A stretch of 64,000 nt of DNA from Squalus acanthias (taxonomy: Eukaryota): assembly GCA_030390025.1 (NCBI GenBank), contig JASTWF010000033.1, forward strand, positions 3,660,001 through 3,724,000. Direction: 5' to 3'. How positions within the stretch are numbered: position 1 is the first letter of the stretch; every line of letters starts with the position of its first letter. Shown in pieces: positions 12,863 to 48,500 of the stretch. The position numbers and the translations under genes were made by a program. Under the pieces are notes generated by a model. It ran no database searches and was not told where the DNA came from. It saw only the letters and a list, made by a program, of their open reading frames with translations.

Positions 12863-15762
12863 GTGTCAGGAAGGGACAGAAGATATGGAGTAAAAGGTAA
12901 AGTAATAAAAAGGGCAAAAGCAGGAACTAAGTGTCACAAAACATTTTTGAAAGTTCTCTATCTGAATGCACGTAGCATTCGTAACAAAATAGACGAGTTA
13001 ATGGCACAAATAAGTACATATGGGTATGATCTTGTGGCCATTACAGAAACATGACTGTAGCGTGACACTGCCTGGGAATTAAACATACCAGGTTATTTAA
13101 CGATCAGGAAGGACAGGCAGGAAGGAAGGGGAGGTGGGGTGGCTATGTTAATAAAGGAAGGAATCACTGTAATACAGAGAAATGATATTGGGTCAAAAGA
13201 TCAGGATAATGAAACAGTTTGGGTGGAGATAAGGAATAATAAGGGGAAAACAACACTAGTGGGCGTAGTCTATAGGCCTCCGAATAGTTGCAACTCTGTT
13301 GGACGGAGTATCAATCAGGAAATAGAAGAGGCTTGTAATAAGGGAACATCTATAATTATGGGGGATTTTAACGATCATATTAATTGGGCAAATCAAATTG
13401 GGCAGGGCTGCCTTGAGGATGAGTTCATTGACTGTATTGGGGATGGGTTTCTTGAGCAGTATGTAACTGAAGCGACCAGGTGGCAAGCAACCTTAGATCT
13501 GGTCCTGAGTAACGAGACAGGATTAATTAAAAATGTCGTAGTAAAGGATCCCCTTGGAATGAGTGACCATAACATTGTTGAATTCCATATTCAATTAGAG
13601 GGTGAGAAGGTTGGATCTCAAACAAGCGTGCTAAGCTTGAATAAAGAGACTATGAAGGTATGCGAGCGGAATTGAATAGAGTGGCTTGGGAAAATAGACT
13701 AAAGGGTAAGACGATACATGATCAGTGGTGTACATTTAAGGAGTTATTTTACAACTTCCAAAAAATATATATTCCACTGAGAAGAAAAGGGTGTAAAAGA
13801 AAAGACAGTCATCCGTGGCTAAGTAAAGAAATTAAGGATAGTATTCGAATAAAAACAAGGTCTTATAAGGAAGCCAAATCTAGTGGGAGGATAGAGGATT
13901 GGGAAAACTTTAAAAGACAGCAAAAAATAACAAAAAGATTGATTAAGAAAGGGAAGATAGATTATGAAAGTAAATTAGCAAAAAATATAAAAACAGATAG
14001 TAAGAGTTTTTATAGTTATATAAAAAGAAAAAAGGGTGGCTAAAGTAAATGTTGGTCTCTTAGAGGATGAGACCAGGAAATTAATGGTGGGAAATATGGA
14101 GATGGCAAATACACTGAATGAATATTTTGTATCAGTCTTTACAGTAGAGGACACTAAGAATATCCCAACACTGGACAAACAGGGGGCTATAGGGGGGGGG
14201 GGGGAGGAGCTAAACACGATCAAAATCACTAAGGAAGAGGTACTCGGTAAAATAATGGGACTCAAGGCGGATAAATCACCTGGACCTGATGGCTTACATT
14301 CTAGGGTCTTGAGGGAAGAGGCGGTAGGGATTGTGGATGCATTGGTAATCATTTTCCTAAACTCCCTGGATTCAGCAAAGATCCCGGCAGACTGGAAAAC
14401 TGCTAATGTAACACCCTTATTTAAAAAGGGCAGTAGACAGAAGGTTGGAAAATATAGACTGGTTAGCCTAACATCTGTGGTAGGTAAAATTTTGGAGTCC
14501 ATTATTAAGGAGACAGTAACGGGACATTTGGATAATCATAATTTAATAGGACAAAGTCAGCGTGGTTTTATGAAGGGGAAGTCATGTTTGACAAATTTGC
14601 TGTATTTCTTTGAGGAAGTAACACACAGGGTGGATAAAGGGGAACCGGTGGATGTGGTATATTTAGACTTCCAAAAGGCATTTGACAAGGTGCCACACAA
14701 AAGATTATTGCTTAAGATAAAAAATCACTGGATTGGGGGTAATATTCTGGCATGGATAGAGGTTTGGCTATCTAACAGAAGGCAGAGAGTTGGAATAAAT
14801 GGTTCATTCTCGGACTGGCAACCAGTTGCCAGTGGTGTTACGCAGGGGTCGGTGCTTGGTCCCCAACTCTTTACAATCTATATTAACGATTTGGAGGAGG
14901 GGACCGAGTGTAACATATCAAAGTTTGCAGATGATACATAGATGGGAGGGAAAGTAGTTAGTGAGGAGGACATAAACAATCTGCAAGGGGACATAGACAC
15001 GCTAAGTAAGTGGGCAGAGATTTGGCAGATGGAATACAATACTGGAAAGTGTGAGGTTATGCACTTTGGCAGGAAAAATAGTAGAGCAAGTTATTATCGA
15101 AATGGCAAGAAACTGGAATGTACTGAAGTACAAAGGGATCTGCGGGTCCTGGTGCACGAAACTCAAAAGGTTAGTATTTAGGTGCAGCAAGTGATTAAGA
15201 AGGCCAATGGAATGTTGGCTTTCATTGCTAAGGGGATAGAATATAAAAATAGGGAGATATTGCTGCAGTTGTACAAGGTATTGGTGAGACCGCACCTTGA
15301 ATACTGCATACAGTTTTGGTGTCCATAATTAAGAAAAGACATACTTGCTCTCGAGTCAGTACAAAGAAGGTTCACTCGGTTAATCCCGGGGATGAGGGGA
15401 TGGACATATGAGGAGAGGTTGGGTAGATTGGGACTCTACACATTGGAGTTAGAAGAATGAGAGGCGATCTTAATGAAACATATAAGATTGTGAAGGGGTT
15501 GGATCGGGTGGATGCGGGGAGGATGTTCCTGATGATGGGTGAAACTAGAACTAGGTGGCATAGTCTTAGAATAAGGGGCTGCTCTTTCAAAACTGAGATG
15601 AGAAGGAACTACTTCACTCAGAGGGTGGTAGGTCCATGGAATATGCTGCCCCCAAAAGCTGTAGAAGCTACATCATTACATAAATTTAAAACAGAAATTG
15701 ACAGTTTCCTAGAAGTAAAGGGAATTAAGGGTTACGGGGAGCGGGCAGGAATTTGGACATGA
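12863..15762 (+). pseudogene. CR1 ORF2 (APE + RT), disrupted
   Basis: [35 protein letters not shown] and TRWHSLRI across several broken ORFs. Confidence 0.92.
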
Positions 15763-15891
15763 GTCTAGGTTCGGAACGGTCGTGGCCCTGTGGGTAGCGT
15801 AGCGGGCCCAGGGGTCGTGTAGCCTGATCCTGCTCCTATTTCGTATGTCCAATTCTGTTAGGTTCAGGAGATGGTTCTGTGATAGTAGATT

Positions 15892-17559
15892 TGTACGGGG
15901 GCCTGTCTCAGACGGTGCTGGTGCGAGGTTAGGCCTTCGTTGCCTAATACTATTGCTTGCTCTGATCTCCGGCCAGCCTTTTTGCAATAAGCACCTGTGA
16001 GTGGTTCGACCCACTCGCCCTTACGGTTCTAACACTGGACTTGGGTGCAAGGAGCAGTAATGCAGAGAAAACTCAAATAGAACCGGTTGAATAGTACGAA
16101 ATGGAAATCTTTATTGCATGGCGTCTAAAATCAGGAAGTACATGTCATAGGCACAAATCAACGAGAGTACAAGTATACATACATTCATAAAGCTTGGTCT
16201 ATGGAAATGAAAAACACACGGCACATCGTAAAAAGGGGAACACATTATACCTTAACCTTATTAAAAACCACCCTCCCTTAACAACATCTACACTACGTCT
16301 AGATTTGTAGGATCGGAAAACACACTCACCACTCGTGTTACTTCGGAGATTTTTAAAGTGAGGCACTCAACTCGTTTCGCTGCAGCGCTGACTGTCACGT
16401 GTTTGGTAGGGTCTCTGCACCCCACTTGTTTACTTTCGCTGCTGCGAAAAGCAGGCCAGACTCTCTGTTGTCATGAAGAACTCGGCAGAACTCGGAACGT
16501 TTGTAAAATTCAAAGAAGAGTCTTCCTGTGCGCGATACAGGTTGTAGTCGGTAGAACTCAAAGAAGAGTTCTTTATTTATATTTTCGGGCGCGGTCGGGG
16601 TTTACTGACCGTAGCGGCACGTGGATTCTTCTCGTCTTCTTCTCGTCTCGTCTCTTCGGGCCTCCGGGTCCAGACACCGTTTACTGACACTCGGGATGGT
16701 GTACCCTGTTACTTGCCCTTGTCGGGGCGGCTCGTTCCGATTGAGCTCCACCCAACATTCGAATAACCGACCAGTACGGCTAAGAGTCAAGAGTCAACAA
16801 AGTCCAGAGAAACACAAAGTCCAGCCCTAAGGAAGAGCTTCAGCAAGAGTCCGCCGAGAGATAAGAGCCAGCCGGGAGAATAAGAGTTCAGCAGACAGCA
16901 GCGAGATAAGAGACCGATGGACATTTGTTCTCTATAGTTATAGTGATGTGTCCCCTTATCTCCCGCTCAAATCTTAATGTTTGTCCTTTGTGTAATATTG
17001 GCGCACAAAACTTCCAGCAGGGGGCGATTCTTTTCTTTAACGGGTTTCGGTAGCACCTGAAACTGGCCAACTATCAGTTAATGTCTTCCCCATTGTTGAA
17101 CCAGCCAGGATGTGTATGAATCGTCTCCCTGACTGGTTTTGGGCCCTCCCCGAATACGGACTTAATCACCCGTCAATGTCTCTCTCATTGTAGAGCCGTG
17201 GGGGTATTTGTGAATTGATGTGTCTGGATGGGCCTTCAATTGCCCAGTACAATGATCCTTACTGTGCATAGGAAAACGATTCCAGCACTTATATCTTTGC
17301 TATTGTTCCAAATGCAAACGGGTTGCATCCTGTCTTTATCAGTGTTTACCGAGTATGATCCAATCTTATTCTGAATGTTTATTCGACGCCATCTTGTCTG
17401 CCCACTGTATTTCCGGAAGCTTCTGCCACAATGCGCGGCTGCCATTTTACAGGCTTCTGTGTCCTTTATTATCAGGACAGCATTTTGTTTAATAAAACTG
17501 ATCAAACGAATCTGCTTCTCTCTTGTTATTTTGAATCGCGATAATTGCGACACTGTACA
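15892..17559 (-). repeat. 3' LTR (1668 bp)
   Basis: Termini TGTAC..GTACA; colinear with 31703-33371. Minus-strand AATAAA at 16110-16115 and TATAAATA at ~16574-16581. Confidence 0.95.
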
Positions 17560-17572
17560 GTCCCTCCTGTTG
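17560..17572 (-). other. Polypurine tract
   Basis: Minus strand reads AACAGGAGGGAC immediately before the TG of the 3' LTR. Confidence 0.7.
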
Positions 17573-17953
17573 ATGCGAATAACTCCGCTTATTGTATCAA
17601 TTAAAAATGGTGTTGAGCAAAATTATCCCGATTCTCCACATCCAAACACTCCCGGTACTTAAACTATCTGTGGCCTCCATGCAGTCCTCATTTCCCAGTG
17701 AAATTACATTGTCTAAACTTGGATAAATCGTAGGCAGCATTGCCTTTAAACTTACACTGCGTATACGCCTTCCAGGTGCAAAAGACCGATGCCTCTCGCA
17801 CCACCTGTATATGCATGTTTTATTATAAAAGGAAAAATAATCAAACCAACTGCTTTAAAAATACAAAAGTTCCAAACTTAGTTACACATACTCATAACTA
17901 ACAACAACTACAAAAACACACATGGTAAAATGGAGCGGCGTCATTCTGGCCGT

Positions 17954-20309
17954 TTACGCGGTACTTTCCTCGTTCACGCGCACGTAACGTACTCTCCACT
18001 CCCCTGTGTTCTCCTGCCTCGTGAGGCGTTTGCCTCTTTTGCAGTGTACGGACAATAGGTACACTACAATCACAACTTGACACACTACCAAAATGTGGGA
18101 GGCTATCCTTATCCATGACGGGACTTCAATATTAATGAACAGATCCCACCACGGTGGGATTACTATGTTCAGTATCTCTGTCCCTATCTCTACAGTCTTT
18201 TGTTCCAGGGTGTAAAAATGTTTCTGTGATACCATGACGGCTTTTAAAATCTTGGTGAGGTGTTCAGGGAGAGGGGGAATAATGTATCCGAAATGCGCGA
18301 CGAATCGCTGCAAGTCTGTGAAATTCTCTTTTACAGTGAGGTGAACAGTGGATGGTTCAGGGATCGGGACAATTCGCTATTGTGCCACTTGAACTTCAGC
18401 CCTGAATTTAAAACAGAAATTGCTGTCACTCACCAGACACCGGCTGTGGTGTCCATGCTGGTAGTGTTGCGCTGCAGTGGCAACGCAATACGTTCCACCC
18501 CCCATGTATGCCACCTGTGGGGGCACATGATCTTGTGTCATTGCTTCCATGGTGCAATTCATGGGCTTCGCGCCAGCCGTTCTGAACCCGCATTGTGGTG
18601 TTAAAAAGGCATTCAAGTGCTGGGGACACAGTATGATGTGTGCTCCCCGGCCACGACAACCCGAAAGGTTGGTACCTGTCATCGTTTGCTCCAAGCGGAT
18701 GACGTAAGGTGGGACCGCTGCATAGCGAATGTGGGCTCCCCCCTGAATGACACCAATGTTCTCCACTCGATAAACCGGGGCGGGCTTTGCTGTGTCGCCC
18801 AACACCGGCAACCGTACTACTATCCCCGTGATAGTATGATTTGACCGTCTGCAGTCCACGGTGACTGGGTATGCCTCTGAGGCTAGCCTGAGCTGGCACG
18901 GGCTTAATGCGTTCTGAAAAGTGTGGAGCGCCTGCAGGTGTTTGTTACTTATCCAGGACGGGACCAAACCTTGTTTTAAATCCTCCAAATTACTGCGGCC
19001 CTCGCCCAGTAACCACGCCCCATATAGTACGCACACCTCGTTCTGCGCAGCTTGATCGGATGCATTCTGATCTTCCCTGATCAGGGCATTTACCGTTCTC
19101 GCATGCTTCTCCAGCTCTGCTACAATCTCTTTTAAGTGTAGTGTCATGGCCTTGTCCTCATGTAACTCAGACCCTACTACGTTCTCGTTTGTGAGGATGC
19201 TTTTTAACTGTGTTTTTAAACCGTTGATCTGGGTCTGCAGCTCCACATTGTCTAGAGCATTGACCACAGATGTTCCCGTATTAAAAGCAGTGAACACATC
19301 GTTCACAACATCCCTTCTTTGTCTCCCCACCTGACCCAAAACTTCGTGTGGTGTGGTGTATAAGCTTGTTTTGTCAACCTCTGCAAAAGCAAACTCATAG
19401 AATTGCCTGAACATGTTTGTTAACAGGACCTGGTACAATTGTTCCATTTCTTTGGGACACCACTCTGGTAATTGCACCTCGGTGAGATTTAGATTCAACG
19501 AAGCCACCGCGTAATGTACCCCTTGATATAGTATCTGATCTGTTGGCACCAGTACCAGACCATTCCCGGGCCCCTTAGTGGTTTTAGGGCACCCTTCCTC
19601 CTGAGCCAAAACCACCGGAATCGTGGGCGGAGACTTGCGTGGGCACGTGATGAGTTCAGTGGCGTTTACCGGGATCGGGGAGAATGGAGCTCCGCACCCC
19701 CTGGTGCTGACATCCCACCTCATCCCTTTCCCGTCATACTGCCGCTGTTGCAGGAAAAATATGGATATACACTTGGGGCAAACGTACTTCGATCCCCACA
19801 TACAAACATATATTCCCTCATCCGGTTCCCACCATTTGTCCCAACAGACTTTCAATTGTCCGTTAGTCCCCGTAATTGTCCGATGGGTATTGTTACCCAA
19901 TCGCTCCCACTCGACCGAGGAATTTCTCATAGTCTTGCTTAACTTCCATAACCACCACCTTCGGCTCAATGGGACCTTCCCATTGCTCGTCAAACAAATC
20001 CTTTTTGCCGACGGTGACGGTGACGCTGATTCTGGGTGCAATGATCCTCACCCTGGGACACAGTAAAGAAGTATCTTTGTAGGCAAATCCGGATGCGCTG
20101 GAGTATTCCGTCGAATTCGTTCCCAGCCATCCCGGCCACCTTCCCTTGTGGAAATAAGTGGCGGTTTCCTCAGCCTTTCGCTCCCCGGTCCCATCCGTCG
20201 CGATGGGGCCCGTGTCCCCGGAGCAACCGAACACAACGACATCCTTGGTGAGGCCCCGATAGGCCAATTCATATCCGATCGTTGCGAGAACTATCAGAAT
20301 CCGTTCCAT
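17954..20309 (-). pseudogene. env: Envelope glycoprotein, class I F-type fusogen; one frameshift, two in-frame stops
   Basis: Signal-like MERILIVLATIG at 20309. ORFs 20048-20272, 18377-20041 and 17954-18313 share one frame. Furin site RQRR at 19313-19324, then fusion-peptide/heptad region, Cys-rich domain, several N-x-S/T sites and TM segment IASHILVVCQVVIVVYLLSV. Confidence 0.88.
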
Positions 20310-20861
20310 CTTTCCTGTTTCAGTGATCAGATAAAATGATGTCGCCAGCCTCCCAAGAGTCTTTGGCTTTTGTGAAGGGTGAGCGGGTCCCTTTACCTCG
20401 TCTCACGTACAAAGACACGTATGCTGGATAGACCTTAACTATTCCTATCACTAACTCCCATCATTTTACCATTTACTTTTAAAATTAAACTACAATCTTA
20501 CCAAACTTAAAACACTATAAACTTAAACTTATCCTAAACTTAACTGTACAGCGCCGCCCGTTCCCAGGGCGGCCTACCTAAATTCTGCGAAGGCTGCCAG
20601 GAGCTTTTCCCAGTGGCGGGGGTGCACTGACCCCATCCATTGATCTGCCGCAGCCTGTCGTCGCTGCGCTGGGACTGGGATCTCCCTGGGCTACCTTGAA
20701 CTTACGCCTGGGGATGTACGAGGGATTTGACCACAACTTCCTGGGCTGGGGTGTCCGACTCGACCTACGGAGGGCTACCTTGGGCAAGATTTCCAGGACC
20801 GACGGATCGGGAACCGAGACTTCCACCGTCACGGCCTGTGGTCCCACCACAGCCGCCGGCT

Positions 20862-21307
20862 CTGTCTCCCCTGGCTCCGCCCCCTGGGCTCGGGACCTGC
20901 GGTTTCTGACTCCACCCTACTTGTCTCTCCAGTATGTGGAACTCAACTCACAGTCCCTATCTCCCCTGGCCCCGCCCCCCTGGCCCCGCCCCCTGGGCTC
21001 GGGAGCTGTGGTTTCTGACTCCACCCTCCTTGTCTCTCCAGTATGTGGATCTCCACTCACAGTCCCTGTCTCCCCTGGCCCCGCCCCCTGGGCTCGGGAT
21101 CTGTGGTTTCTGACTCCACCCTACTTGTCTCTCCAGTATGTGGAACTCCACTCACAATCCCTGTCTCCCCTGGCTCCGCCCCCTGGCCCCGCCCCCTGGC
21201 CCCGCCCCCCTGGCCCCGCCCCCTGGGCTCGGGATCTGCAGTTTCTGACTCCACCCTACTTGTCTCTCCAGTATGTTGAACTCCACTCGCAGTCCCTGTC
21301 TCCCCTG
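20862..21307. repeat. Tandem array between integrase and env: 4 units of a 95-bp core with variable GC-box subrepeats
   Basis: Units start at 20862, 20957, 21066 and 21161 (95, 109, 95 and 135 bp) and carry 1, 2, 1 and 4 copies of TGGC(C/T)CCGCCCCC. Confidence 0.93.
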
Positions 21308-24200
21308 AGCTTGGGTCGAGGGCGGAACCTCCGTCCTCCGCCCCCACCACCTCTCCGACCGGGTCACTACCTTGGTCGAGCTCTCCGAGCTCTTCCTCAT
21401 CTGAATCCCAACACCAAGAAAAGATCCTACACTTTTCCAGAATGTCCTCTCCCCTCAAGCAGGCTGCTTTACCGGCCTGTGTGCCCTGCGGTTCTACCTG
21501 GGGCTGAGAGTCCCCACTCGCAGGTTTGGCCCCTGTGATTGGCCCCTGTGCACCCGGCTTGTACAGCTTGCACTGGTTAATGTGGAACCATTTCGTGCGC
21601 CGGTGTACCTTCACGGCATACACCATGGGACTCGCCTTATCTACAATACTGTGGGGTCCCATATACAGTGGTTCCAAACTCCCTACTCTGGCATAGTTCC
21701 TAACCATGACCTGATCTCCGACTTCACACTTACGGAGTTCCAGCAACAGTCGATTGCCCTGATGCTGTCTTCCCATGTTCCCAGCCGCCTGCTCGTAAAC
21801 CTGCTTCGGGCGCTCCGAGAGGGTCTGGTCAAACTTGTCCCTTTTCACCTCTTGGAGCTGACCTCAGTGAGCACCGGGGCTAGTACATGGGTGGGGGTTC
21901 GCATGAACCTCCCAGTCATCACCTCGTACGGGGAATACCCCGTACTCTTCGACTGGCTGGCCCGGATTTCCATGAGGACTAGAGGCAGAACCTCCGCCCA
22001 TTTTTGGGGTGAGTTCATAGTCTCTTTCCTCAGTTTCTCCTTGAGGGTCCGGTTCATGCGTTCAACAATCCCTGATGACTGGGGATTGTGCGCTACGTGC
22101 CACTTCCCTTCAATGCCCAAAAGCATGAGGGTGTTCTGCATCACCTGTCCGGTGAAATGACTCCCTTGGTCTGACTCCACGAAACGGGGGAGTCCCCACC
22201 GCGAAAACACTTCCCGAACCAAGATCTTGGTAGTACCCAGCGCCGTAGCTGTTCTACAGGGGAAGTCTTCTACCCACTTGGAAAACACATCCACCAAGAC
22301 GAGGCAGTATTTGTAGCCTCCTTGGGTGGTGGGCAGGGGCCCTGTGTAATCGATCTGTCTCGACTGCCATGGTCCCTCCACCCTCCTGATGTGCCCCATG
22401 TGCACTTTCCTTTTCTGGGGGTCTGGGTTGTTTGCAGCGCACACAAGACAGCTTGCACAGAACTCGCGGACCTGCTCCCTGAGTACCGGCCACCAGCCGG
22501 CCTGCTCTACCCGTTGCCAGGTAACCTCAGGCCCGGGGTGTCCTGCCCCCGGCCCCTCATGAGCCAACTGGAGGAATTCCCTCCTGTGCTGCTGCGGCAC
22601 AACCAACTGTTCCTCACGGAACAGCATGCCTTCTTTAACGGAGAGTGTTGCCGTACTGTACGGGCCCTCTACCTGCTTGCCCTCAGTAATCGTTTTGAGA
22701 ACTGCTTTTAGGGCGGGATCCTGGTTCTGGACGGTCTTAAGGTCTAGGGGCAGTGCTACCCTGGTGTTCCCGGTATTCCCTTCCCTGCCTTGGATCGCTG
22801 CCACGGGTCCGGGTCCATAGGGGTCCCAGAAAATGCCGTTACGGGCACCCTCACTGGCTAGCGCATCCGCCTGCTGGTTGCCCTCCCCGCGGGGTTCTGT
22901 GGAGGAGTGAGCCTTCACCTTATGGATGAAAATCTCCCCTTCCTCCCCCACTGCTGCTAGGATCTTTTCCAGCAAGGGCTTCACCGTTAAAGGTCGCCCG
23001 TCCGCGGAGGTGTAGCCAAGGCGGGACCAAATGGCCAGGTAATCCGTACACGAATTGCACGTAAACATACTGTCCGAACAAATCGTGTATGGGGTTGGGA
23101 AGATCTTTGGGTGGGTAACTACGTACGCCACCGCAGACAGCTCAGCATGCTGCACGCTCATCGTGCTGGGGAGTTTAATTGCCAATGCAAGGTTTGCCGC
23201 AGGGTCATAAACTCCACATTCTGTGAGTCGTTCGCCAGCGGACACTGTGCTGGAACCATCAACATAAATCTCGCGGCCTGTGGGATGTATCCCGGCCCGC
23301 AAACCTATGTTGACCTCCCACACCCCTTCCACCAAACACTGGTGGGCTGTTCCGGGGTATACCAGGTTGGCCGTGAGCCTGGGCTCGCAAAGACCTTTAA
23401 CTCTAAGATCCATCTGGGAAAGGAGAAGGGTCCAACGCGCAATACTAGTGCTGCTTACGGTCCCATCCTTAATCCTCCCATCCAGAAGCATCTTGGTTGG
23501 TGTGTGATGGGTGAGGAGAGTGATGGGAGAGAGCCCTGTGAAATTCGCTGATCTTTTCACAGCCCAATGCGTGGCTAAAAGATGCCTTTCGCAGTTGGAA
23601 AAACTCCTATCCACATCCGTTAACACCCTGGACGTATAGACAACCGGCCTCAGTTTGCCGTGACGCTCTTGGAGCAGCACAGCGCTCAAGCTGTCTCCGC
23701 TGGCAACTACCTCCAGGAAAAACTCCTCCCCCCGTCTATGGCCCCTAAAGCTGGCGCGGTCTGCAAATCCCCTTTTAACTTCTCGAATGCTGCCTGACAG
23801 CCCTCGTCCCAAGACCACTCCACTCCCTTATGGAGGAGTCGGAGCAGCGGAGCTGCTGTCGCCGCATAGTCCTCGATAAAGTCTCTACAGTATCCGGTCA
23901 GGCCCAGAAAGGACCTCACACCCGTTATGGTGTTGGGAATCGGTAACTCCTGCACCGACTCCCTCCTAGCCTTATCTATGGCTCTTTCCCCAGCGCGAAT
24001 GGTCAGACCCAGGAATTTTACTTCCTGCTGACCGATCCGTGCTTTCTTAGGGTTAACTTTAAAACCCTTTCTCGCTAGCAGCTCCAATAACTCGGCTAGC
24101 AGTGGTCCATGCTCCTCCCTTGAGTCCGTGACCAGGAGCAAATCATCCACGTACTGCACTATCTGATTGGGCTGACTAAACTCCTTTAAACTTCCTGCCA
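21057..24200 (-). pseudogene. pol: pol 3' part: RT palm/thumb, degenerate RNase H tether, RNase H, integrase with GPY/F tail
   Basis: YVDD at 24142-24153; VRSFLGLTGY; LEVVAS..YTSR..CERHLLA (degenerate RH); YVDGS..AEL..SDS..VKAH..GNQQAD (second RH); HHCC, IDYTGPLP, SDQGSHF, SGIVERMN; LYMGPHSI. Confidence 0.93.
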
Positions 24201-27200
24201 GGGAACCTGAGCAGGGAGACCGAGGAAAGCATGTCAGGAAGGGACAGAAGGTATGGAGTAAAAGGTAAAGTGTTAAATAAGGAAAAAGCAAGAAGTAAGT
24301 GTCGCAAAACACATTTGAAAGTTCTTTATCTGAATGCACGTAGCATTCGTAACAAAATTGACGAGTTAACGGCACAAATAACTATGTATGGGTATGATCT
24401 TGTGGCCATTACAGAAACATGGCTGCAGGGTGACAACGTCTGGGAATTAAATATGCCAGGGTATTTAAAAATCAGGAAGGACAGGCAGGAAGGAAGGGGA
24501 GGGGGGTGGCTATGCTAATAAATAAAGGAATCACTGTAATACAGAGAAATGATATTGGGTCAAAAGATCAGGATAATGAAACAGTTTGGAAACAGATAAG
24601 GATTAATAAGGGGAAAAAAACACTGGTGGGCGTAGTATATAGGCCTCCTAATAGTTGCAACTCTGTTGGAAGAAGTATTAATCAAGAAATAGTTGGGGCA
24701 TGTAATAAGGGAACAGCTATAATTATGGGGGATTTTAACTATCATATTAACTGGACAAATCAAATTGGGCAGGGCAGCCTTGAGGAAGAGTTTATTGAGT
24801 GTCTTCGGGATGGATTTCTTGAGCAGTATGAAGGGGGCAAGCAACCTTGGACCTGGTACTATGCAACGAGTCTGGATTAATTAATAATGTCCTAGTTAAG
24901 GATCCCCTTGGAATGAGTGACCATAACATGGTTGAATTCCATATCCAATTAGAGGGTGAGAAGGTTGGTTCTCAAACAAGCATACTGAGCTTGAATAAAG
25001 GAGACTATGATGGCATGAGAGCAGAATTGATTAAAGTGGACTGAGAAAATAGATCAAAGGGTAAGACGGTACATGAGCAGTGGTGTTCATTCAAGGAGTT
25101 GTTTTACAGCTTTCAAAATAAATATATTCCATGTGAGGAAAAAAGGGTGTAAAAGAAATGACAGCCATCCATGGCTAAGTAAAGAAATTAAATAAATTAT
25201 CCAAATAAAAAACAAGGACATATAAGGTAGCCAAAGTTAGTGGGAGGATAGAAGATTGGGAAGTCTTCAAAAGACAACAAAAGGTAACTAAAGGATTGAT
25301 TAAGAAAGGGAAAATAGACTATGAAAATAAATTAGCAAAAAATATAAAAACAGATAGCAAGAGTTTCTATAGTTATATTAAAAGGAAAAGGGTGGTTAAG
25401 GCAAACGTAGGTCCCTTAGAGGATGAGACCGGGAAATGAATGGTGGGAAACATGGAGATGGCAAAAATGCTGAACAAATATTTGGTTTCAGTCTTTACGG
25501 TAGAGGAGACTAAGAATATTCCAACACTGGACAAACAGTTGGCTCTAGTGGGGAGGAGCTAAATACGATTAAAATCACTAAGGAATTGGTACTCAGTAAA
25601 GTAATGAGACTCAAGGCGGATAAATCCCCTGGACCTGATGCCTGACATCCTAGGGTCTTGAGGGAAGTGGCAGTAGGAATTGTGGATGCTTTGGTAATAA
25701 TTTTCCAAAACTCCCTGAACTCAGCAAAGGTCCCGGCAGATTGGAAAACTGCTAATGTAACACCCTTATTTTAAAAGGGTTGTAGGCAGAAGGCTGGAAA
25801 TTATAGAGCAGTTAGCCGAACATCTGTGGTGGGTAAAATTTTGGAGTCTATTATTAAGGAGACAGTAACGGAACATTTAGATAAACATAATTTAATAGGA
25901 CAAAGTCAGCATGGCTTTATGAAGGGGAAGTCATGTCTGACAAATTTGCTCGAGTTCTTTGAGGACATAACGTACAGGGTGGATAAAGGGGAACCAGTGG
26001 ATGTAGTGTATTTAGACTTCCAGAAGGCATTCGACAAGGTGCCACATAAAATATTATTATTCAAGATAAAAAATCACTGGATTGGGAGTAATATTCTGGC
26101 ATTGGTGGAGGATTGGTTATCTAACAGGAAGCAGAGAGTTGGGATAAATGGTTCATTCTCGGACTGGCAACCAGTAGCCAGTGGTGTTCCGCAGGGGTCG
26201 GTGCTGGGTCCCCAACTCTTTACAATCTATATTAACTATTTGGAGGAGGGGACCGAGTGTAACATATCAAAGTTTGCAGATGATACAAAGGGAGGAAAAG
26301 TAGAGAGTGAGTAGGACAAAAAAAAACTACAAGGGGATATAGACAGGCTGGGTGAGTGGGCAGAGATTTGGCAGATGCAATACAATATTGGAAAATGTGA
26401 GGTTATGCACTTTGGCAGGAAAAATCAAAGAGCAAGTTATTATTTTAACGGCGTGAAACTGGAAAGTACTGCAGTACAAACTGATCTGGGGGTCGTGGTG
26501 CAAAAAAATCAAAAAGTTAGTATGCAGGTGCAGCAGGTTATCAAGAAAGCCAATGGAATGTTGGCTTTTATTGCTGGGGGATAGAATATAAAAACAGGCA
26601 TGTATTGCTGCAGTTGTATAGGGTATTGGTGAGACCGCACCTGGAGTACTGCATACAGTTTTGGTGTCCATACTTAAGAAAATACATACTTGCTCTCGAG
26701 GCAGTACAAAGAAGGTTCACTCGGTTAATTCCGGGGATGAGGGGGTGGACATACGAGGAGAGCTTTAAGAGATTGGGACTCTACTCATTGGAGTTCAGAA
26801 GAATGAGAGGCGATCTTATTGAAACATGAAAGATTGTGAAGGGGCGTGATCGGGTGGGCGCGGTGAGGATGTTCCCAATGATGGGTGAAACTAGAACTAG
26901 GGGACATAATCTTAAAATAAGGGGCTCCTCTTTCAAAACTGAGATGAGGAGAAACTTTTTCAATCAGAGGTTAGTGGGTCTGTGGAATTTGCTACCCCAT
27001 GAAGCTGTGGAAGCTACTTCATTAAATAAATTTAAAACAGAAATAGACCGTTTCCTAGAAGTAAAGGGAACCGGGGTTACGGGGAGCGGGCTGGAAATTG
27101 GACATGAGTTTGAGTTCGGATCGGTCAAGGCCCTGTGGGTGGCGGAGCGGGCCCAGGGGCCGAGTGGCCTGGTCCTGCTTCTAATTCTTGTGTTCTTTAG

Positions 27201-27298
27201 AGTTGAGGTTGGATCAGATCAGCCATGATCTCATTGAATGGCGGAGCAGGCTCGATGGGCCGATTGGTCTACTCCTGCTCCTATTTCTTATGTTCTTA
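24201..27298 (+). mobile_element. 5'-truncated CR1 inserted in the proviral RT
   Basis: APE+RT remnants and a double tail. Excising it restores SPSIFHQC-MAGSLKEF exactly (no TSD). Confidence 0.92.
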
Positions 27299-27840
27299 TA
27301 CACTGATGGAAAATACTGGGGCTGTTGTCAAAACCCTGTGGCAAACAGTTCCATGTGTACTGTTGTCCTTTATAAGTAAAGACAAACTTGTACTGGTCCT
27401 CTCGCCGCAGCGGGATGGACCAAAAACCGTTCGAGATATCCAGCACCGTGAACGTGGTCGCGGACGCTGGGATGCTCCCTATTAGGTCAGCAACTGCTGC
27501 TACTGTGGGCGCGCAGGCCGGGATGTTACTGTTAAGGACTCTGTAGTCCACCGTGGCCCTCCACGAATTATCCAGCTTCCTTACCGGCCATAATGGGGAG
27601 TTCACGTGTGTGGCTATCGGCCTCAACACGCCCTGCTGCACCAATGAGGACATTGCTGTCTCCAAATCGGGTTCTGCTTCTTTGGTGAAGTTATACTGCT
27701 TTTGGGGCCGGATCATGGGGTCCCCGTCTATGCTGACCTCAAACCCGGTAACCCTCCCACAATCGTGCTTGTGGGTTGCAAACGCGTGCATATTATCTGA
27801 CACGTACGTTTGCATGTCCGTTGGGACATCTGCGACCATA
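27299..27840 (-). pseudogene. pol: pol: N-terminal half of the reverse transcriptase
   Basis: PQKQY, NSPLWPVRK, WRATVDYRVLN, LDISNGFWSIPL, LPQGFDNSPSIF. Confidence 0.93.
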
Positions 27841-29416
27841 AGCCTGAGGGTCGATAAGTCCCCTGGGCCAGATGGGATATATCCTAGGATTCTTTGGGAG
27901 GCAAGGGAGGAGATTGCAGAGCCTCTGGCTTTGATCTTTGGGTCCTCACTGTCCACGGGAATGGTGCCAGAGGACTGGTGAGTGGCGAATGTTGTTCCTC
28001 TCTTCAAGAAAGGAAATAGGAATGACCCTGGTAATTATAGGCCGGTTAGTCTTACTTCGGTGGTTGGTAAGATAATGGAAAAGGTCCTGAGGGATAGGAT
28101 TTATGACCATTAGGAAAGGGGCAACTTAATCAGGGATAGTCAACACGGATTCGTGAAGGGTAAGTCCTGCCTAACAAATTTGATTGAATTCTTTGAGGAG
28201 GTAACTAAGTGTGTAGATGAAGGTAGAGCAGTTGATGTCGTATACATGGATTTTAGTAAGGCGTTTGATAAGGTTCCCCATGGTCGGCTCATGAAGAAAG
28301 TAAGGAGTTGTGGGATAGAGGGAAATTTGGCCGATTGGATAAGTAACTGGCTATCTCATAGAAGGCAGAGGGTGGTGGTGGATGGAACATTTTCGGACTG
28401 GAGACCAGTTACCAGCGGTGTGCCACAGGGGTCGGTGCTGGGTCCTCTGCTGTTTGTGATTTTTATCAATGACTTGGAGGAGGGGACTGAAGGGTGGATC
28501 AGTAAATTTGCTGATGACACCAAGATTGGTGGAGCAGTGGATGAGGTGGAGGGCTGTTGTAGGCTGCAAACAGACATTGATAGGATGCAGAGCTGGGCCG
28601 AAAAATGGCAGATGGAATTTAACCCTGATAAGTGCGAGGTGATTCATTTTGGTAGGGCAAAAATGAATAAGGATTACAGGGTCAACGGCAGGGTTCTGAG
28701 GAACGTTGAGGAAGAGCGGGATCTGGGGGTTCATATCCACAGATCTCTGAAGGTTGCCACTCAAGTGGATAGAGCAGTAAAGAAGGCCTATGGTGTGTTG
28801 GCGTTTATTAACAGAGGTTTTGAGTTTAAGAACCGTGAGGTTATGCTGCAACTGTACAGGACCTTGGTGATACCACATTTGGAATATTGTGTGCAGTTCT
28901 GGTCACCTCACTATAGGAAGGACGTGGAAGCATTGGAAAGAGTGCAAAGGAGATTTACCAGGATGCTGCCTGGTTTGGGGGGGAGGTCTTATGAAGAAAG
29001 ATTGAGGGAGTTGGGGCTTTTCTCTTTAGAGCGGAGGAGGATGAGAGGCGAATTAATAAAGGTTTATAAGATGATGAGGGGGATAGATAGAGTGGATGTT
29101 CAGAGACTATTTCCTCGGGTAGAGGCAGCTGTTACAAGGGGGCATAACTATAAGGTGCATGGGGGGAGATATAGAAGGGATGTCCGAGGTAGATTCTTTA
29201 CTCAGAGAGTGGTTGGGGTGTGGAATGGACTGCCTGCTGTGATAGTGGAGTCAGACACTTTAGGAACTTTCAAGCGGTTATTGGATAAGCACATGGAGCA
29301 CACCAGAGTGATAGGGAGTGTGATAGCTTGATCTTGGTCTCGGACAATGCTGGGCACAACATCGAGGGCCGAAGTGCCTGTACTGTGCTGTACTGTTCTA
29401 TGTTCTATGTTCTATG
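27841..29416 (+). mobile_element. 5'-truncated CR1 (second subfamily) inserted between protease and RT
   Basis: ORF 28153-29331 (YMDFSKAFD, FADD, TRGHNYK) and a (TGTTCTA)n tail ending ~29416. Confidence 0.92.
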
Positions 29417-29880
29417 TAACCTACGGATGGTTTCATGGTACACAGGGCCCCTTTACCTTCCTTCCCCGGGATTACAACTACCTTGCCTTTCCCACCCTTG
29501 GCTCCCCAGAGACAGTGATTCCTAAGGTCCACGAGGATCCCGTGTTCCGCTAGGAGATCCAATCCGAGGATACCTCTGCCACCCCCCTCTTGCCATTTCA
29601 TCTGTATGCACTTCCACGCGGTGTGGAGTGCTCCTAAATGAATGGAGAGCGGAATGGAGAACGCGCCAGCCTGCTCTTTTCCCGTGAACCCTGCTAATGT
29701 GAATGGGACCTTGGTAGACAGTGGTGAGTCAAAGGGGCTATCCGTATGGATCACGGTGCATGAAGCTCCCGTTTCCAACAAGTAACTACATTTCTGCTTC
29801 TCTACCTCCATCTCCACCAGGGGTCTTTTCCACGCATCACAGCTGTGCGGACACAGGTAAACGGGCTGCGTGGGCTTTAG
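29417..29880 (-). pseudogene. pro: pol: aspartic protease
   Basis: YLLETGAS (DTG with D>E), LAGFTG flap and ILGLDLL; in frame with gag after a single TGA. Confidence 0.9.
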
Positions 29881-31698
29881 TCATTGGGTACTGGTGGACG
29901 GGGTTGTGGCATCTGTGGGGCCGGTAACGACTGCCACCCTCCCGTACGAAATCATAAGGGACCGCATGGCTCCCAACATTGATTCTATCGCATCGGGATG
30001 GATAGGAACACCAGCTCCTTTCTCAGAGACAGGCGCTTGGGTTCGGACTGCGGGAGCTTTGTCCCTGGAGTCCTTCCAGGGATTCCTGCAGTTTTTAAGC
30101 CAGTGACCTGTCTTCCCGCACCCGTAACAAACACCACTGGTTTGTGGGGCGCGATTTCCCTCCTGATGCCACTCTTTCTGACCCGGAGCTGCGGGCTTTG
30201 CCTCATGCACCTTTCCCTTAAGGGGACGCGCTCCCGTGCTCCTAGTGTTCCGATACCCTATGGTGAATCGATTCAGGACAGACTCCTCCGTTGTGGCGGG
30301 GTTAGTGGGATCAAACCACGCTGTGGCCTGCTCCCTGATGGCTGGCAAGCTGTTGGCTACAATGCACCTGAGCCAATGAGCTTTCCCGGCGCCGTCCAGG
30401 TAGTGGCGCGCTGGAGCACCTGGGCAGCTACGCTGGTAAACTGGCCACAGTCTGTCGGCGAAAACCCGCGGGGGTTCTCCCTCCATCTGTACGGTCTGAC
30501 CCAATCTGACGAACGGACCTTCGTCATCCGCCCCTAACACTTCTAGGACCTCGTCCCGTAACTCCGCATAGGTTTTATTTCCCTTCTTGCTCTCGTCGGA
30601 GAGACACTGAAGGATCGAGCTATCTAAAGTGAACAGCAACATTTTGGTCTTTTCCTCGTCGTCGCAGCCATTAATTGCTGCGGTCTGTTCTACTAAAATA
30701 TACGGAAGGGTCTACTGACTCGGACAGCTTCCGTACATGGCTAATCATTGCTCTCAGCTGGTGTGAGCTGTGGGGCAATACAAGTTGGTTCAGGATATCC
30801 CCGTCTGCCCCATTTGCCCCATTCGGGCCTCTCTTGTGACCTCGGAGCAGACACATCGGTCCCGGTCTCGACGCTACCTCCGGGGATTGTCCTACCTCGG
30901 GAACCTTCTTCTCTATTTCCACCACTTCCTCCCTTACCCAGGTTGCCGAATAGCTGGGTGGCGTGGAGGGCATAGTGGCAGATACCTCTTCTGCGTTTTC
31001 CGGTAGGGATCTTGAGAATTCCCTACCCACCTGTGGCTGGCTCGCTGACGGGCTGATGTGACACACCAAGCCGTTTGCCTTATTCAGGGCCTCTCTTAGG
31101 TTTCCTATCTCCTTCTGGCAAACACTGTGGTCGGCTCCCTCATGCCTATCCTCGAGAGCCATCTTGATGCCGCCCTAACTCCCTTCAAGCTTTCTTCCTG
31201 GGCTTGTATCTGGCTAGCTAGGCGGATACACCGTTCTCTAATCCTACCCTCGTTTAATTTTGCTTCCGTGACCTGACATTCGAGGTAATCAATTTTAGCC
31301 TCATGGTGGTTGGCTACTATTTGGCGTTCCTGATGTAACGCATTCAATGATGCAATGAGTTTCTGTCCTCCCGTGACCTTTTCCTCCATCTCAACTTCCA
31401 ATTCCCTGATCTGAGCTGCCTGTGCTGCAATGACCTGGTCCGAAAGTTGGACTTGCTTCTTGTAGCACATCAGCCAGACCGCTTTCTCTACCGACTTCTT
31501 ATGATCGTTACTGCCTGTCCATTTGATGGCGGTGTCTAGCGGACGCTTATCCATCAGTAGGTCACTTATCCACTTTTTGGTTAAGTTAACCTTCCCAAAC
31601 ACATAGTCAGCTACACTTTCATCCGTCACATTTCGCCTATTCAAACCAGGGTCTAAAACATTGCTCTCCTGCTGCCAGAGTCCTGCCGCGGTCGACAT
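29881..31698 (-). pseudogene. gag: gag (N-terminal coiled coil, capsid-like middle, one CCHC knuckle), two frameshifts
   Basis: ORFs 31105-31698, 30671-31162 and 29881-30642; Q..GEPPRVFADRL; CYGCGKTGHWLKNC at ~30088-30129. Confidence 0.88.
31678..31697 (-). other. Primer-binding site, tRNA-Arg(UCG) type
   Basis: Minus strand TGTCGACCGCGGCAGGACTC. It is complementary, with one mismatch in TGG, to the vertebrate tRNA-Arg(UCG) 3' end GAGUCCUGCCGCGGUCG-CCA as recalled from memory. Confidence 0.8.
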
Positions 31699-31702
31699 TT
31701 TC

Positions 31703-33371
31703 TGTAAGGGGGCGTGTCTCAGACGGTGCTGGTGCGAGGTTAGGCCTTCGTTGCCTAATACTATTGCTTGCTCTGGTCTCCGGCTCGCCTTTTTGCAATA
31801 AGCACCTGTGAGTGGTTCGACCCACTCGCCCTTATGGTTCTAACACTGGACTTAGGTGCAAGGAGCAGTAATGCAGAGAAAACTCAAATAGACCCCGTTG
31901 AATAGTACGAAATGGAAATCTTTATTGCATGGCGTCTAAAATCATGAAGTTCATGTCATAGGCGCAAATCAACGAGAGTACAAGTATACATACATTCATA
32001 AAGCTTGGTCTATGGTAATGAAGAACACATGGCACATCGTAAAAAGGGGAACACATTATACATTAACCTTATTAAAAACCACCCTCCCTTAACAATACCT
32101 ACACTACGTCTAGATTTGTCGGATCGGAAAACATGCTCACCACTCGTGTTACTTCAGAGATTTTTAAAGTGAGGCACTCAGCTCGTTTCGCTGCAGCGCC
32201 TGACTGTCACGTGTTTGGAAGGGTCTCTGCACCCCACTTGTTTACTTTCGCTGCTGCGAAAAGCAGGCCAGACTCCCTGTTGTCATGAAGAACTCGGCAG
32301 AACTCGGAACGTTTGATAAATTCAAAGAAGAGTCTTCCTGTGCTCGATACAGGCTGTAGTCGGTAGAACTCAAAGAAGAGTTCTTTATTTATATTTTCGG
32401 GCTCGGTCGGGGTTTACTGACCGTGGCGGCACGTGGATTCTGCTCGTCTTCTTCTCGTCTCGTCTCTTTGGGCCTCCGGGTCCAGACACCGTTTACCGAC
32501 ACTCGGGATGGTGTACCCTGTTACTTGCTCTTGTCGGGGCGGCTCGTTCCGATTGAGCTCCACCCAACATTCGAATAACCGACCAGTACAGCTAAGAGTC
32601 AAGAGTCAACAAACACCAGAGAAACACAGAGTCCAGCCCTAAGGAAGAGCTTCAGCAAGGGTCTGCCGAGAGATAAGAGCCAGCCGGGACAATAAGAGTT
32701 CAGCAGTCAGCAGCGAGATAAGAGACCGATGGACATTTGTTCTCTATAGTTATAGTGATGTCTCCCCTTACCTCCCGCTCAAATCTTAATGTTTGTCCTT
32801 TGTGTAATATTGGCGCACAAAACTCCCAGCATGGGGCGATTCTTTTCTTTAACGGGTTTCGGTAGCACCTGAAACTGGCCAACTATCCGTTAATGTCTTC
32901 CCCATTGTTGAACCAGCCAGGATGTGTATGAATCGTCTCCCTTACTGGTTTTGGGGCCTCCCCGAATACTGACTTAATCACCCGTCAATGTCTCTCTCAT
33001 TGTAGAGCCGTGGTGGTATTTGTGTATTAATGTGTCTGAATGGGCCTTCAATTGCCGAGTACAATGGTCCTTACTGTGCATTGGAAAACGATTCCAGCAC
33101 TTATATCTTTGCTATTGTTCCAAATGCAAACGGGTTGCATCCTGTCTTTATCAGTGTTTACCGAGTATGATCCAATCTTATACTGAATGTTTATTCGACG
33201 CCATCTTGTCTGCCCACTGTATTTCTGGAAGCTTCTGCCACGATGCGCGGCGGACATTTTACAGGCTTCTGTGTCCTTTATTATCAGGACTGCATTTCGT
33301 TTAATAAAACTGATCAAACGAATCTGCTTCTCTCTTGTTATTTTGAATCGCGATAATTGCGAAACTTTTCA
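31703..33371 (-). repeat. 5' LTR (1669 bp)
   Basis: Colinear with 15892-17559; TG..CA termini; about 12 substitutions in the first ~265 bp counted by eye. Confidence 0.95.
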
Positions 33372-33474
33372 GATTGGCGGTTAGGATCAGATCAGCCATT
33401 ATCTTATTGAATGGCGGAGCAGGCTCTAGGGGCCAATTTGCCCACTCCTGCTCCTATTTCTTATGTTATGTTCA
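33372..33474 (+). mobile_element. Displaced 3' tail of the CR1 at 11268-15891
   Basis: GATTGGCGGTTAGGATCAGATCAGCC.. matches the intact 3' UTR at ~43515-43618. Confidence 0.9.
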
Positions 33475-45589: not shown

Positions 45590-48500
45590 CCAGGGGATTT
45601 GACCTGTCCCGGGGGGTGTGACCGATCCCCGGGGGTTTGAATGGTTCTGGGACTTTGACTGGTCCCGAGAGATTGACCGGTCCCGGGAGTTTGACCGGTC
45701 CCAGGGTTTGACCAGCTCCGGGGGTTTGACCAGTCCCGGGGGATTTACCGGTCCCGGGGGTTTGACCGGTCCCGGGGGTTTGACCAGTCCCAGGGGATTG
45801 ACCAGTCCTGGGGGTTCGACCGGTCCCGGGATTTGACCGGTCCCAGGGGTTTGACCAGTCCCGGGGGTTTGACCAATCCCGGGGGATTGACCAGTCCCGG
45901 GGGTTTGACCAGTCCCGGGGGTTTGACCGGTACCGGGGGGTGTGACCAGTCCCGGGGGTTTGACCGGTCCCGGGGGTTTGACCGGTCCCGAGGGTTTGAC
46001 CGGTCCCGGGGGTTTGACCGGTCCCGAGGGTTTGACCAGTCCCGGGGATTTGACCAGTCCCGGGGGATTGACTGCTCCCGGGGGTTTGACCGGTTCCGGG
46101 GATTTGACCGGTCCCGAGGGTTTGACCGGTCCCGGGGGTTTGACCGGTCCCGAGGGTTTGACCAGTCCCGGGGATTTGACCAGTCCCGGGGGATTGACTG
46201 GTCCCGGGGGTTTGACCGGTTCCGGGGATTTGACCGGTCCCGGGGGTTTGACCGGTCCCAGCGGATTGACCGGTCCCGGGGGTTTGACCAGTCCCGGGGG
46301 TTTGACCAGCCCCGGGGGTTTGCCCGGTCCCGGGGGTTTGACCGGTCCCGGGGGTTTGACCGGTCCCAGGGCTTTGACCGGTCCTGGGGCTTTGACCGGT
46401 CCCGGTGGTTTTACTGGTCCTGGGTGTTTGACTGGTCCCGGGGTTGTGACCTGTCCTGGAGGTTTGACCAGTCCCGGGGGTGTGACCGGTCCCAGGGGAT
46501 TAACCAGTCCCGGGGGTTTGACCAGTCCCGGGGGTGTGACCGGTCCCAGGGGATTGACCATTCCCGGGGGTGTGACCAGTCCCGGGGGATTGACCAGTCC
46601 CGGATATTTGACGGGTCCTGGGGGTGTTTGACCAGTCCCGGGGGTGTGACCAGTCCCGGGGGTTTGACAGGTCCTGGGGGGTTTGACCAGTCCCGGTTGT
46701 TTGACCGGTTCCGGGGGTGTGACCAGTCCTGGGGATTTTACTGGTCCCGGGGGTTTGACCAGTCCCGGGGGTTTGACCTGTCCCGGGGGTTTGACTAGTC
46801 CTGGGGGTTTGACCTTTCCCAGGGGTGTGACCTGCCCCGGGTGTTTGACCAGTCCCAGGGGTTTGACCTGTCCCGGGGTTTTGACCGGTCCCGGGGGTTT
46901 GACCTTTCCTGGGGGTTTGACCGGTCCCGGTGGCGTGACCTGTCCCGGGTGTGTGACCTTTCCCGGGGTTATAACCAGTCCGGGGGGTTTGACCGGTCCC
47001 GGGAGTTTGACCTGTCCCGGTGGTTTGACCAGTCCCGGGGGTTTGACCAGTCCCAGGGGATTGAAAGGTCCCGGGGGTTTGACCAGTCCCAGGGGTTTGA
47101 CCTGCCCCGGGGGTTTGACATGTCCCGGGGGTCTGACCGGTCCAGGGGTTTGACCGGTCCCGGGGGTTTGACCAGTCCTGGGGGTTTGACCAGTCCCAGG
47201 GGATTGACCAGTCCCGGGGGTTTGACCAGTTCCGGGGGTTTGACCGGTCCCGGGGGGTGTGACCAGTACCGGGGGATTGACCAGTCCCGGTGGTTTGACC
47301 AGTCCCAGGGGATTGACCAGTCCCGGGGGTTTCACCAGTCCCGGGGGTTTGACCAGTCCCGGGGGTGTGACCAGTCCCGGGGGTGTGACCAGTCCCGGGG
47401 GATTGACCAGTCCCGGAGGTTTGACGGGTCCTGGGGGGTTTGACCAGTCCCGGCGGTGTGACCAGTCCTGGGGGTATTACCATTCCCGGGGGATTGACCA
47501 GTCCCGGAGGTTTGACGGGTCCTGGGGGGTTTGACCAGTCCCGGGTGTTTGACCGGTCCCGGGGGTTTGACCGGTCCCGGGGATTGATCGGTCCTGGACG
47601 TTTGACGGGTCCTGGGGGGTTTGACCAGTCGCGGGGGTGTGACCGGTCCCGGGGGTTTGACCTGTCCCGGGGGGTTTAACCTGTCCCGGGGGTTTGCCCT
47701 GTCCTGGGGTTGTGACCCGTCCCGTGGGTTTGACCGGTCCCGGGGGTTTGACCAGTCCTGGGGGTTTGACCAGGCCCGGGGGTTTGACCGGACCCGGGGG
47801 TTTGACCGGTCCCGGGGGTTTGACCGGTCCCGGGGGTTTGACCAGTCTTGAGGGTTTGACCAGGCCCGGGGGTTTGATCGGACCCGGGGGTTTGTCCGGT
47901 CCCGGGGGTTTGACCGGTTCCGGGGGTTTGACCGGTCCCGGGGGTTTGACCATTCCCGGGGGGATTGACCTGTCCCGGGGGTTTGACCTGTCCAGGGGGT
48001 TTGACCGGTCCCGTGGGTTTGACCGGACCCGGGGGTTTGACCGGTCCCGGGGGTTTGACCGGTCCCGGGGGTTTGACCAGTCCCGGGGCTGTGACCTGTC
48101 CCGGGGGTTTGACCTGTCCCAGGGGTTTGACCTGTCACGGGGGTTTGACCGGTCCCGGGGGTTTGACCTGTCCTGGGGGTTTGTCGGACCTGGGGGTGTG
48201 ACCAGTCCCGGGGGTTTGACCAGTCCCAGGGGATTGAAAAGTCCCGGGGTTTGATAAGCCCCCGTGTTTGACCAGTCCCGGAAGTGTGACCAGTCCCGGG
48301 TTTTTGACCAGTCCCGGGGTGACCAGTCCCGGGGGTTTGACCTGTCCTGGGGGTTTGACCGGTCCCGGGGGTTTGACCGGTCCCAGCGGGTTTGACCAGT
48401 CTTGGGGGATTGACGAGTCCCTGGGGTTGTTACCGGTCCCGCTGGTTTGACCAGTTCCGGGGGTTTGACCGGTCCCAGGGGTTTGACCAGTCCCAGGGGT

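Follow-up and report, generated by a model that had tools for sequence, protein, structure and literature searches.

F-like envelope (Env) glycoproteins have already been described in lokiretroviruses (PMC7947760; PMC9040795; PMC8922424), foamy viruses (PMC11468914; Calcraft 2024, cited in PMC12583693) and invertebrate errantiviruses (10.1101/2023.10.26.564294), as far as the available text of these sources goes. Lokiretrovirus Env was reported to resemble PF00523 by Wang and Han, who, in the sections available of the same paper, considered four scenarios for how retroviral Env arose without deciding among them (PMC7947760) and later favoured independent Env gains in lokiretroviruses and canonical retroviruses (PMC9040795, in part). 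The accessible portion of PMC11468914 gives a core built from both subunits as the defining trait of class Ib, and there Fernandez et al. assign orthoretrovirus Env to class Ia and only foamy Env to class Ib. Baculovirus F, errantivirus F-type Env and the arli- and lispivirus glycoproteins are carried by DNA viruses, invertebrate Ty3/gypsy elements and RNA viruses, and not by vertebrate retroviruses (10.1101/2023.10.26.564294, available text).

Here we analysed a window of 64,000 nucleotides (the whole stretch of DNA under study) in which an env gene had been noticed from the letters alone. With good confidence, this gene is the broken env of a single member of a high-copy endogenous retrovirus (ERV) family, likely of a cartilaginous fish; it is predicted to encode an F-like (class Ib) fusogen and is accompanied by a reverse transcriptase (RT) that groups with canonical retroviruses and not with lokiretroviruses.

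The env gene and the provirus that carries it

The env gene was located on the minus strand and comprises the following features.

17954..20309, minus strand, env gene, disrupted near 20010 by a frame change and at 18377-18379 by a stop
19595..20309, minus strand, signal-peptide-like start and N-terminal arm (~240 codons) ahead of the F-like core, candidate receptor-binding part
19790..20045, minus strand, possible Ig-like domain spanning the frame change, with a weak sub-threshold Pfam Ig_3 match
19325..19591, minus strand, F2-like segment with beta strands and a helix before the cleavage site and a conserved Cys (WCPK, 19462), from structural alignment
19313..19324, minus strand, furin-type site RQRR, from motif scan
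19250..19312, minus strand, putative fusion peptide, mildly hydrophobic, role proposed from its position
18974..19249, minus strand, long heptad-repeat helix (HRA-like), then conserved C-x-x-Y-G, model helices 246-286 and 296-358
18380..18877, minus strand, beta-rich and Cys-rich core matching F domains I/II, from the model and structure comparison
18170..18265, minus strand, second helix (HRB-like), model helix 595-626
18050..18154, minus strand, Trp-containing membrane-proximal stretch and single transmembrane helix, from sequence scan

The gene had first been noted at 17954..19570, and its start was found near 20309, ~245 codons ahead of that span. The original prediction had counted two stops to be repaired; the noted span holds one internal stop (18377-18379) besides the terminal stop, and the second break proved to be a frame change between 20016 and 20008, beyond the span. 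The present copy cannot make the protein, and the minus-strand frame 17954-20047, read with X at the internal stop, gave the 697-residue sequence used for modelling. The RQRR site, the heptad repeat, the late Cys-rich cluster, the second helix and the single transmembrane segment were all recovered where they had been described, as was the Trp-containing membrane-proximal stretch (PWWDLF). The motifs start on the minus strand at 19312 (DVVNDVF), 19240 (LQTQING), 19114 (LEKHART), 18658 (CRGRGA), 18592 (CGF), 18556 (CTME), 18490 (YCV), 18418 (FCF) and 18154 (PWWDLF). An ectodomain of about 400 aa after RQRR had also been proposed, and the chain after this site was indeed found to measure 452 aa, with ~400 aa outside the membrane and 10 ectodomain Cys. 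The hydropathy of Env peaks once, at residues 648-666 (mean 2.36), and the segment after RQRR, with a mean hydropathy of 0.66 over 20 aa, is only mildly hydrophobic to polar. The R-x-K/R-R pattern was present in 12 of the 14 Env proteins scanned, and in 11 of these 12 it occurs where the two subunits meet. In four of seven siblings, the env end (18000-18200 region) is overlapped by a 72-codon ORF in a different frame, which is closed in the window copy.

Gamma-type Envs are marked by an immunosuppressive domain (ISD) and a CX6CC motif in a short TM subunit, and by a CXXC in SU. Pattern scanning of Env gave no match to CX6CC, CX7CC or ISD-like patterns, in agreement with the original prediction, and the lone CXXC (residue 90) is not conserved among the four aligned sibling copies. 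Judged by these motifs, shark Env does not appear to be a gamma-type Env.

The env gene sits in a full-length, CR1-interrupted provirus (15892-33371, minus strand), which is flanked by a 4-bp target duplication (15888-15891 and 33372-33375) and comprises the following further features.

15892..17559, minus strand, 3' LTR, 1668 bp, with TG...CA ends and a purine tract ahead of it
31703..33371, minus strand, 5' LTR, 1669 bp, with TG...CA ends, K2P 0.042 to the 3' LTR
31679..31698, minus strand, primer-binding site complementary to host tRNA-Arg(TCG), one mismatch in the window copy
29881..31699, minus strand, gag region in three frame pieces with a CCHC knuckle (zf-CCHC, E 6.4e-4)
29398..29880, minus strand, protease (RVP, E 1.8e-4)
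23707..27981, minus strand, fragmented reverse transcriptase with CR1 LINE sequence inserted
21845..23827, minus strand, tether (RT_RNaseH), RNase H and integrase

The primer site starts 5 bases past the 5' LTR (31679-31702), and the first gag-side ATG overlaps it, so that almost no leader lies between the LTR and the gag-side ORF; the same spacing was observed in all four sibling 5' ends in which the junction was found. Matches to the tRNA-Arg(TCG) 3' end number 427 genome-wide, two of which were checked as tRNA genes, and long tandem arrays (period ~1623 bp) match this 3' end as well. Gag, protease, RT, tether, RNase H and integrase are arranged in the order typical of retroviruses. Two CR1 LINE insertions split RT, at 24232-27290 and at about 27980-29400, and the larger CR1 is 87% identical to the CR1 beside the 3' LTR (12864-15848). 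The LTR distance corresponds to ~10 to 95 million years, based on rates taken from PMC4422223 of 2.2e-9 (mammals) and 2.2e-10 (assumed for sharks). The LTR yielded no conserved accessory ORF, and downstream of env the window has no ATG ORF of at least 70 aa. Elsewhere in the window, GC-rich tandem repeats with periods of 95 and 13-14 lie between pol and env (20868-21226), and the region 46000-64000 has a uniform GC content of ~65% with a steady skew and is likely a satellite.

The predicted Env fold is F-like across both subunits

The Env model was built with 30 sequences and reached a pLDDT of 61.6 and a pTM of 0.47, with 316 of 697 residues at 70 or above and residues 1-149 unreliable. Foldseek against the PDB returned 235 matches at E ≤ 0.001, and among the matches listed all were paramyxovirus or pneumovirus F proteins, with hPIV3 F as the best (E 8.1e-11). 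In the VIA comparison with 48161 chains, where long helices inflate Z and the alignments here also take in beta domains, the top 13 chains comprised eleven from F proteins and two from foamy Env (Z 10.6 to 7.1), followed by a first unrelated chain at Z 6.2 and by HIV gp41 at Z 4.8 over 80 helical residues. The rmsd values in the F comparisons are large: NDV F was aligned at Z 10.6 over 368 residues with an rmsd of 18.0, and a second structure comparison gave Langya F (Z 12.2, rmsd 6.8, 328 residues) and Nipah F (Z 11.6, rmsd 4.9, 289 residues). The foamy Env chains scored Z 8.1-8.3, the Z 8.3 row having an rmsd of 6.0 over 272 aligned residues. The structural alignments run from model residue 158-160, equivalent to F residue 26-38, to 560-630 and thereby cross the cleavage site; because the match begins ahead of this site, both subunits would build the core. 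The F proteins of paramyxoviruses and pneumoviruses (hPIV3 1ztm, Langya 8tvg, NDV 3maw and RSV 3rki) thus have the same predicted two-subunit fold, heptad repeats and Cys-rich beta core as shark Env, but at 7-16% identity and with no Pfam match. These results argue for the originally proposed F-type fusogen, as opposed to a gamma-type SU/TM, with a predicted fold that matches paramyxovirus and pneumovirus F across both subunits. Neither a gamma-type or gp41-type best match nor a lack of any fusogen fold was encountered, since F was matched and no gamma- or gp41-type structure matched beyond a helix.

Sequence searches were silent on this relationship. Neither PF00523 (Fusion_gly) nor any other Pfam fusion or Env family was reached at sequence level by the query or its relatives (0/26; 0/27), and the best sub-threshold Pfam result was one relative with Baculo_F (PF12259; E 0.0011, 18.1 bits versus a cut-off of 24.1). 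Solved F proteins were not retrieved by single-sequence and profile searches of the PDB, in which the best E value was 0.067, for a coronavirus spike C-terminus. Of the checks proposed with the original prediction, Foldseek matched F, and Pfam gave no match above the cut-off to Fusion_gly or baculovirus F. A trimer prediction of the unbroken post-cleavage stretch, run without an alignment and with an uncertain fold, scored 0.01, which speaks neither for nor against a trimer.

The lack of a sequence-level match and the pTM of 0.47 would also suit a long-helix artefact of a medium-confidence model, in which case the protein would be a divergent ordinary retroviral Env. However, the alignments span 270-370 residues including beta domains (model 160-570, mostly pLDDT 70-95), the unrelated helical matches stop at Z 6.2, and gamma-type motifs are missing, and we regard this explanation as extremely improbable. 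The preferred reading, an F-like fusogen, accounts for a set of class Ib traits in the model: a basic cleavage site followed by a mildly hydrophobic putative fusion peptide and a long predicted HRA helix, a predicted two-subunit core with beta-rich domains I-III, and an HRB helix with a single C-terminal transmembrane segment. Like shark Env, foamy virus Env is a retroviral Env with an F core and belongs to class Ib. Foamy Env, however, has its receptor-binding domain inserted between the subunits and two membrane segments (PMC11468914, sections available), whereas shark Env has its extra domain at the N-terminus, one transmembrane segment and ~90 residues from the first F2-like strand to the cleavage site; the foamy layout of a leader transmembrane segment and a between-subunit receptor-binding domain is not found in it.

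The structural neighbourhood of Env extends beyond paramyxoviruses. Baculovirus F, errantivirus F-type Env and arli- and lispivirus glycoproteins supplied the top Atlas clusters and the top matches in a viral structure library. In this library, the first named paramyxovirus F came at rank 11, below arthropod RNA-virus glycoproteins and baculovirus F; the Envs of walleye retroviruses and feline foamy virus and the model of a fish filovirus glycoprotein (E 6.3e-12) were matched as well. The walleye matches are to modelled Env proteins, one from walleye epidermal hyperplasia virus 1 (E 1.6e-10) and one from walleye dermal sarcoma virus (E 2.9e-7), and epsilonretrovirus Env may be F-like too. In the Atlas, the Baculo_F and Gypsy clusters came first, with Baculo_F, Gypsy and Fusion_gly at 0.93-0.95, scores that are weak because the recognition value of 1897 lies below the Atlas mark of 2300. 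Since insect-virus and baculovirus glycoproteins outrank paramyxovirus F, Env would be F-like rather than paramyxovirus-derived, so that the type named in the original prediction is supported for the broad class, and a special tie to paramyxoviruses is not. The model supports placing the shark Env fold in a broad F-like class that includes paramyxovirus and pneumovirus F, baculovirus F, and errantivirus, foamy and lokiretrovirus Env.

The reverse transcriptase groups with canonical retroviruses, outside the lokiretrovirus clade

ERVs related to snakehead retrovirus (SnRV) exist in a cartilaginous fish (PMC4422223), and shark ERV RTs mostly belong to clade III (PMC11089739, available text). SnRV, clade Huo and class III ERVs, including CmiERV lineage I of the elephant shark, agree with the provirus in the best named RT match, the basal canonical position and the shark host (PMC4422223; PMC6001957, in part), but the query forms no supported clade with SnRV, and frog and coelacanth elements are closer to the shark RT. 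The RT tree was built on 31 rows, hand-picked from 121 to thin near-duplicates and including no foamy, beta or lenti virus, and was labelled by visual comparison with a published alignment (P0095 as SnRV RT; P0086 and P0098 by their lokiretrovirus motifs). It placed the query within the canonical clade (99/99), with the lokiretrovirus rows apart (100/99) and the gamma/epsilon-like rows apart (98/96), and a quick tree of 63 rows agreed. Within the canonical clade, the query belongs to a basal polytomy that also holds SnRV, an ERV-L-like row and elements from frog, turtle and coelacanth, with no supported join to SnRV. The N-part of RT is 48% identical to SnRV, 41% and 32% to lokiretroviruses and 51-57% to the frog and coelacanth elements, and the C-part fails to separate SnRV (38%) from lokiretroviruses (38% and 36%). 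Outside the tree, MLV RT scored 207 bits and foamy RT 181. No RT relatives were found in viral contigs.

Lokiretrovirus was a first guess for the element and was dropped, given an RT outside the lokiretrovirus clade and differing motifs. Lokiretroviruses do resemble the shark element: their Env has a signal peptide, a basic site, a fusion peptide, a coiled coil, a single transmembrane segment and an F-like character, and the element is arranged as gag-pol-env with dual RNase H. A plain lokiretrovirus, the first in a cartilaginous fish, would therefore fit the published definition by its F-like Env, dual RNase H and gene layout (PMC7947760, sections available). The dual RNase H (tether plus RNase H) is present; this trait is not diagnostic, however, because it is common to canonical retroviruses. 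Against this assignment, the query RT is canonical and carries LPQGF where lokiretrovirus RTs carry PFGY or PFGL, a tree with query and lokiretroviruses forced together was marginally rejected (AU test, p 0.046), and shark Env has a more polar fusion peptide and an extra N-terminal arm of ~220 residues that is absent from the lokiretrovirus Envs compared. Moreover, in the published screen none of six chondrichthyan genomes was positive (PMC7947760, available text). We consider a plain lokiretrovirus very unlikely.

The downstream part of pol gave a different signal. With RNase H-integrase, the lokiretrovirus row P0098 scored 301 bits versus 128 bits for SnRV, and integrase is 42% identical to lokiretrovirus versus 35% to SnRV. 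Together with an Env core that, by eye, follows lokiretrovirus Env in its GP-x-x-G start, basic site and Cys spacing, these values would suit a recombinant in which a class III-like RT acquired a lokiretroviral env, perhaps together with RNase H and integrase, making the F-like Env a local and not an old feature. The integrase tree, however, gives no resolved grouping of the query with lokiretroviruses or CGIN1. Frogs and coelacanth harbour relatives of pol as well as of Env, which points to an old lineage if env and pol are linked there, and none of the 18 named Env matches looked up came from ray-finned fish, the main lokiretrovirus hosts. Recombination is thus an unlikely, if respectable, explanation, and a canonical, non-lokiretroviral lineage with its own F-like Env is preferred.

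The N-terminal arm of Env

In this arm, the pattern Cys...Trp...D-x-G-x-Y-x-C is one that we take to be Ig-like. Pfam Ig_3 was matched in three of nine proteins at E 0.0085-0.58, all under the cut-off, and not by the Env piece of the window itself. An Ig-like domain in the arm is therefore weakly suggested by sequence pattern. Folded alone, the arm reached a pLDDT of 32, and its best structure match, at Z 3.6, carries no meaning; the Atlas search with the arm gave no usable match, and its PDB profile search was dominated by the zinc fingers of a mis-predicted fusion in one homologue. Signs of an Ig domain at the N-terminus also appear in two distant Env relatives, P0038 (V-set E 0.045) and P0016 (with 'Ig-like domain-containing protein' as its source name); when the arm profile was compared with P0038, only the F2-like start was aligned. 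An IgV receptor-binding domain is known in some gamma-type Envs (10.1101/2024.03.17.585361, available text). Paramyxoviruses and pneumoviruses use a separate attachment protein (PMC11468914, in part), whereas shark Env has its own arm; because no attachment gene of its own is seen in the provirus, the arm might be the receptor-binding part, a guess from its position.

Genomic copies, selection and relatives of Env

All 125 Env candidates scored matched at 91-100% (8672 in a first look), and all 150 RT candidates scored matched at 94-100% (12761 in a first look), these figures not being copy numbers. An LTR match was found in four of eight sibling end pairs, with an identity of 98.3-98.8%. Several RT matches are same-strand pairs ~11.1 kb apart in the genome, which suggests tandem proviruses with a common LTR. 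Of 20 copies chosen by RT, 19 carry env where it is expected, and in 11 a frame of 780 codons or more is free of stops. A first dN/dS estimate of 0.105 came from 11 copies ranked by Env similarity, and because such ranking biases the estimate, it was redone on the RT-chosen copies, five of the 20 being left out as they gave no single unbroken alignment over the core. The resulting dN/dS was 0.088, from 105 pairs of 15 copies that are not independent of one another. The env gene is under purifying selection, which indicates that Env was needed during family expansion and suggests reinfection.

The nearest Env relatives were found in skate (76%) and sawshark (57-64%), which points to a cartilaginous fish as the host, and the Env profile search collected 46 proteins at E ≤ 0.001. 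Twenty relatives looked up came from sharks (12), frogs (4) and coelacanth (2), with two unnamed. The relatives keep the basic cleavage site, the C-x-x-Y-G after the long helix and the core Cys pattern, so the Env motifs are not chance occurrences. In the frog Mantella aurantiaca, a cluster of 16 related Env proteins (with P0044), mostly of 677 aa, suggests a recent expansion there as well.

Discussion

By analogy with F proteins, the Env precursor would be cut by furin at RQRR into two subunits, which might be held together by a disulfide between Cys197 and Cys339 of the model, and the protein would form trimers. On triggering, the peptide after RQRR would be projected into the target membrane, and HRB would then zip along HRA. 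The N-terminal arm may bind the receptor, and the family likely spread by reinfection.

What appears new here is the combination of a basal canonical RT lineage with an F-like Env that carries an N-terminal arm. No account of a shark lineage that pairs an F-like Env with a canonical, non-foamy RT was found in the literature, including the available text of PMC10435555, PMC12440569, PMC11521997, PMC6001957, PMC13709493 and 10.1101/2024.03.25.586437, a survey with limited coverage of subscription papers; 10.1101/2021.11.23.469661, on anamniote Env diversity, and PMC3758190 and supplements may bear on the point.

Tentatively, we consider it possible that an F-like Env was ancestral to retroviruses and was kept by lokiretroviruses, foamy viruses, the shark/frog/coelacanth lineage and perhaps walleye epsilonretroviruses, each with its own added receptor-binding module (here the Ig-like arm), gamma- and beta-type Envs being later replacements. 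If this were true, class Ia Env would not be common to all orthoretroviruses. The lineage studied here, which combines an F-like Env with a basal canonical RT outside the foamy viruses and has relatives in three vertebrate classes, provides a taxon for testing single versus repeated origin. The N-terminal arm would represent another way to give the F scaffold its own attachment module, and the finding would widen the range of retroviruses known to use the F-type entry machine.
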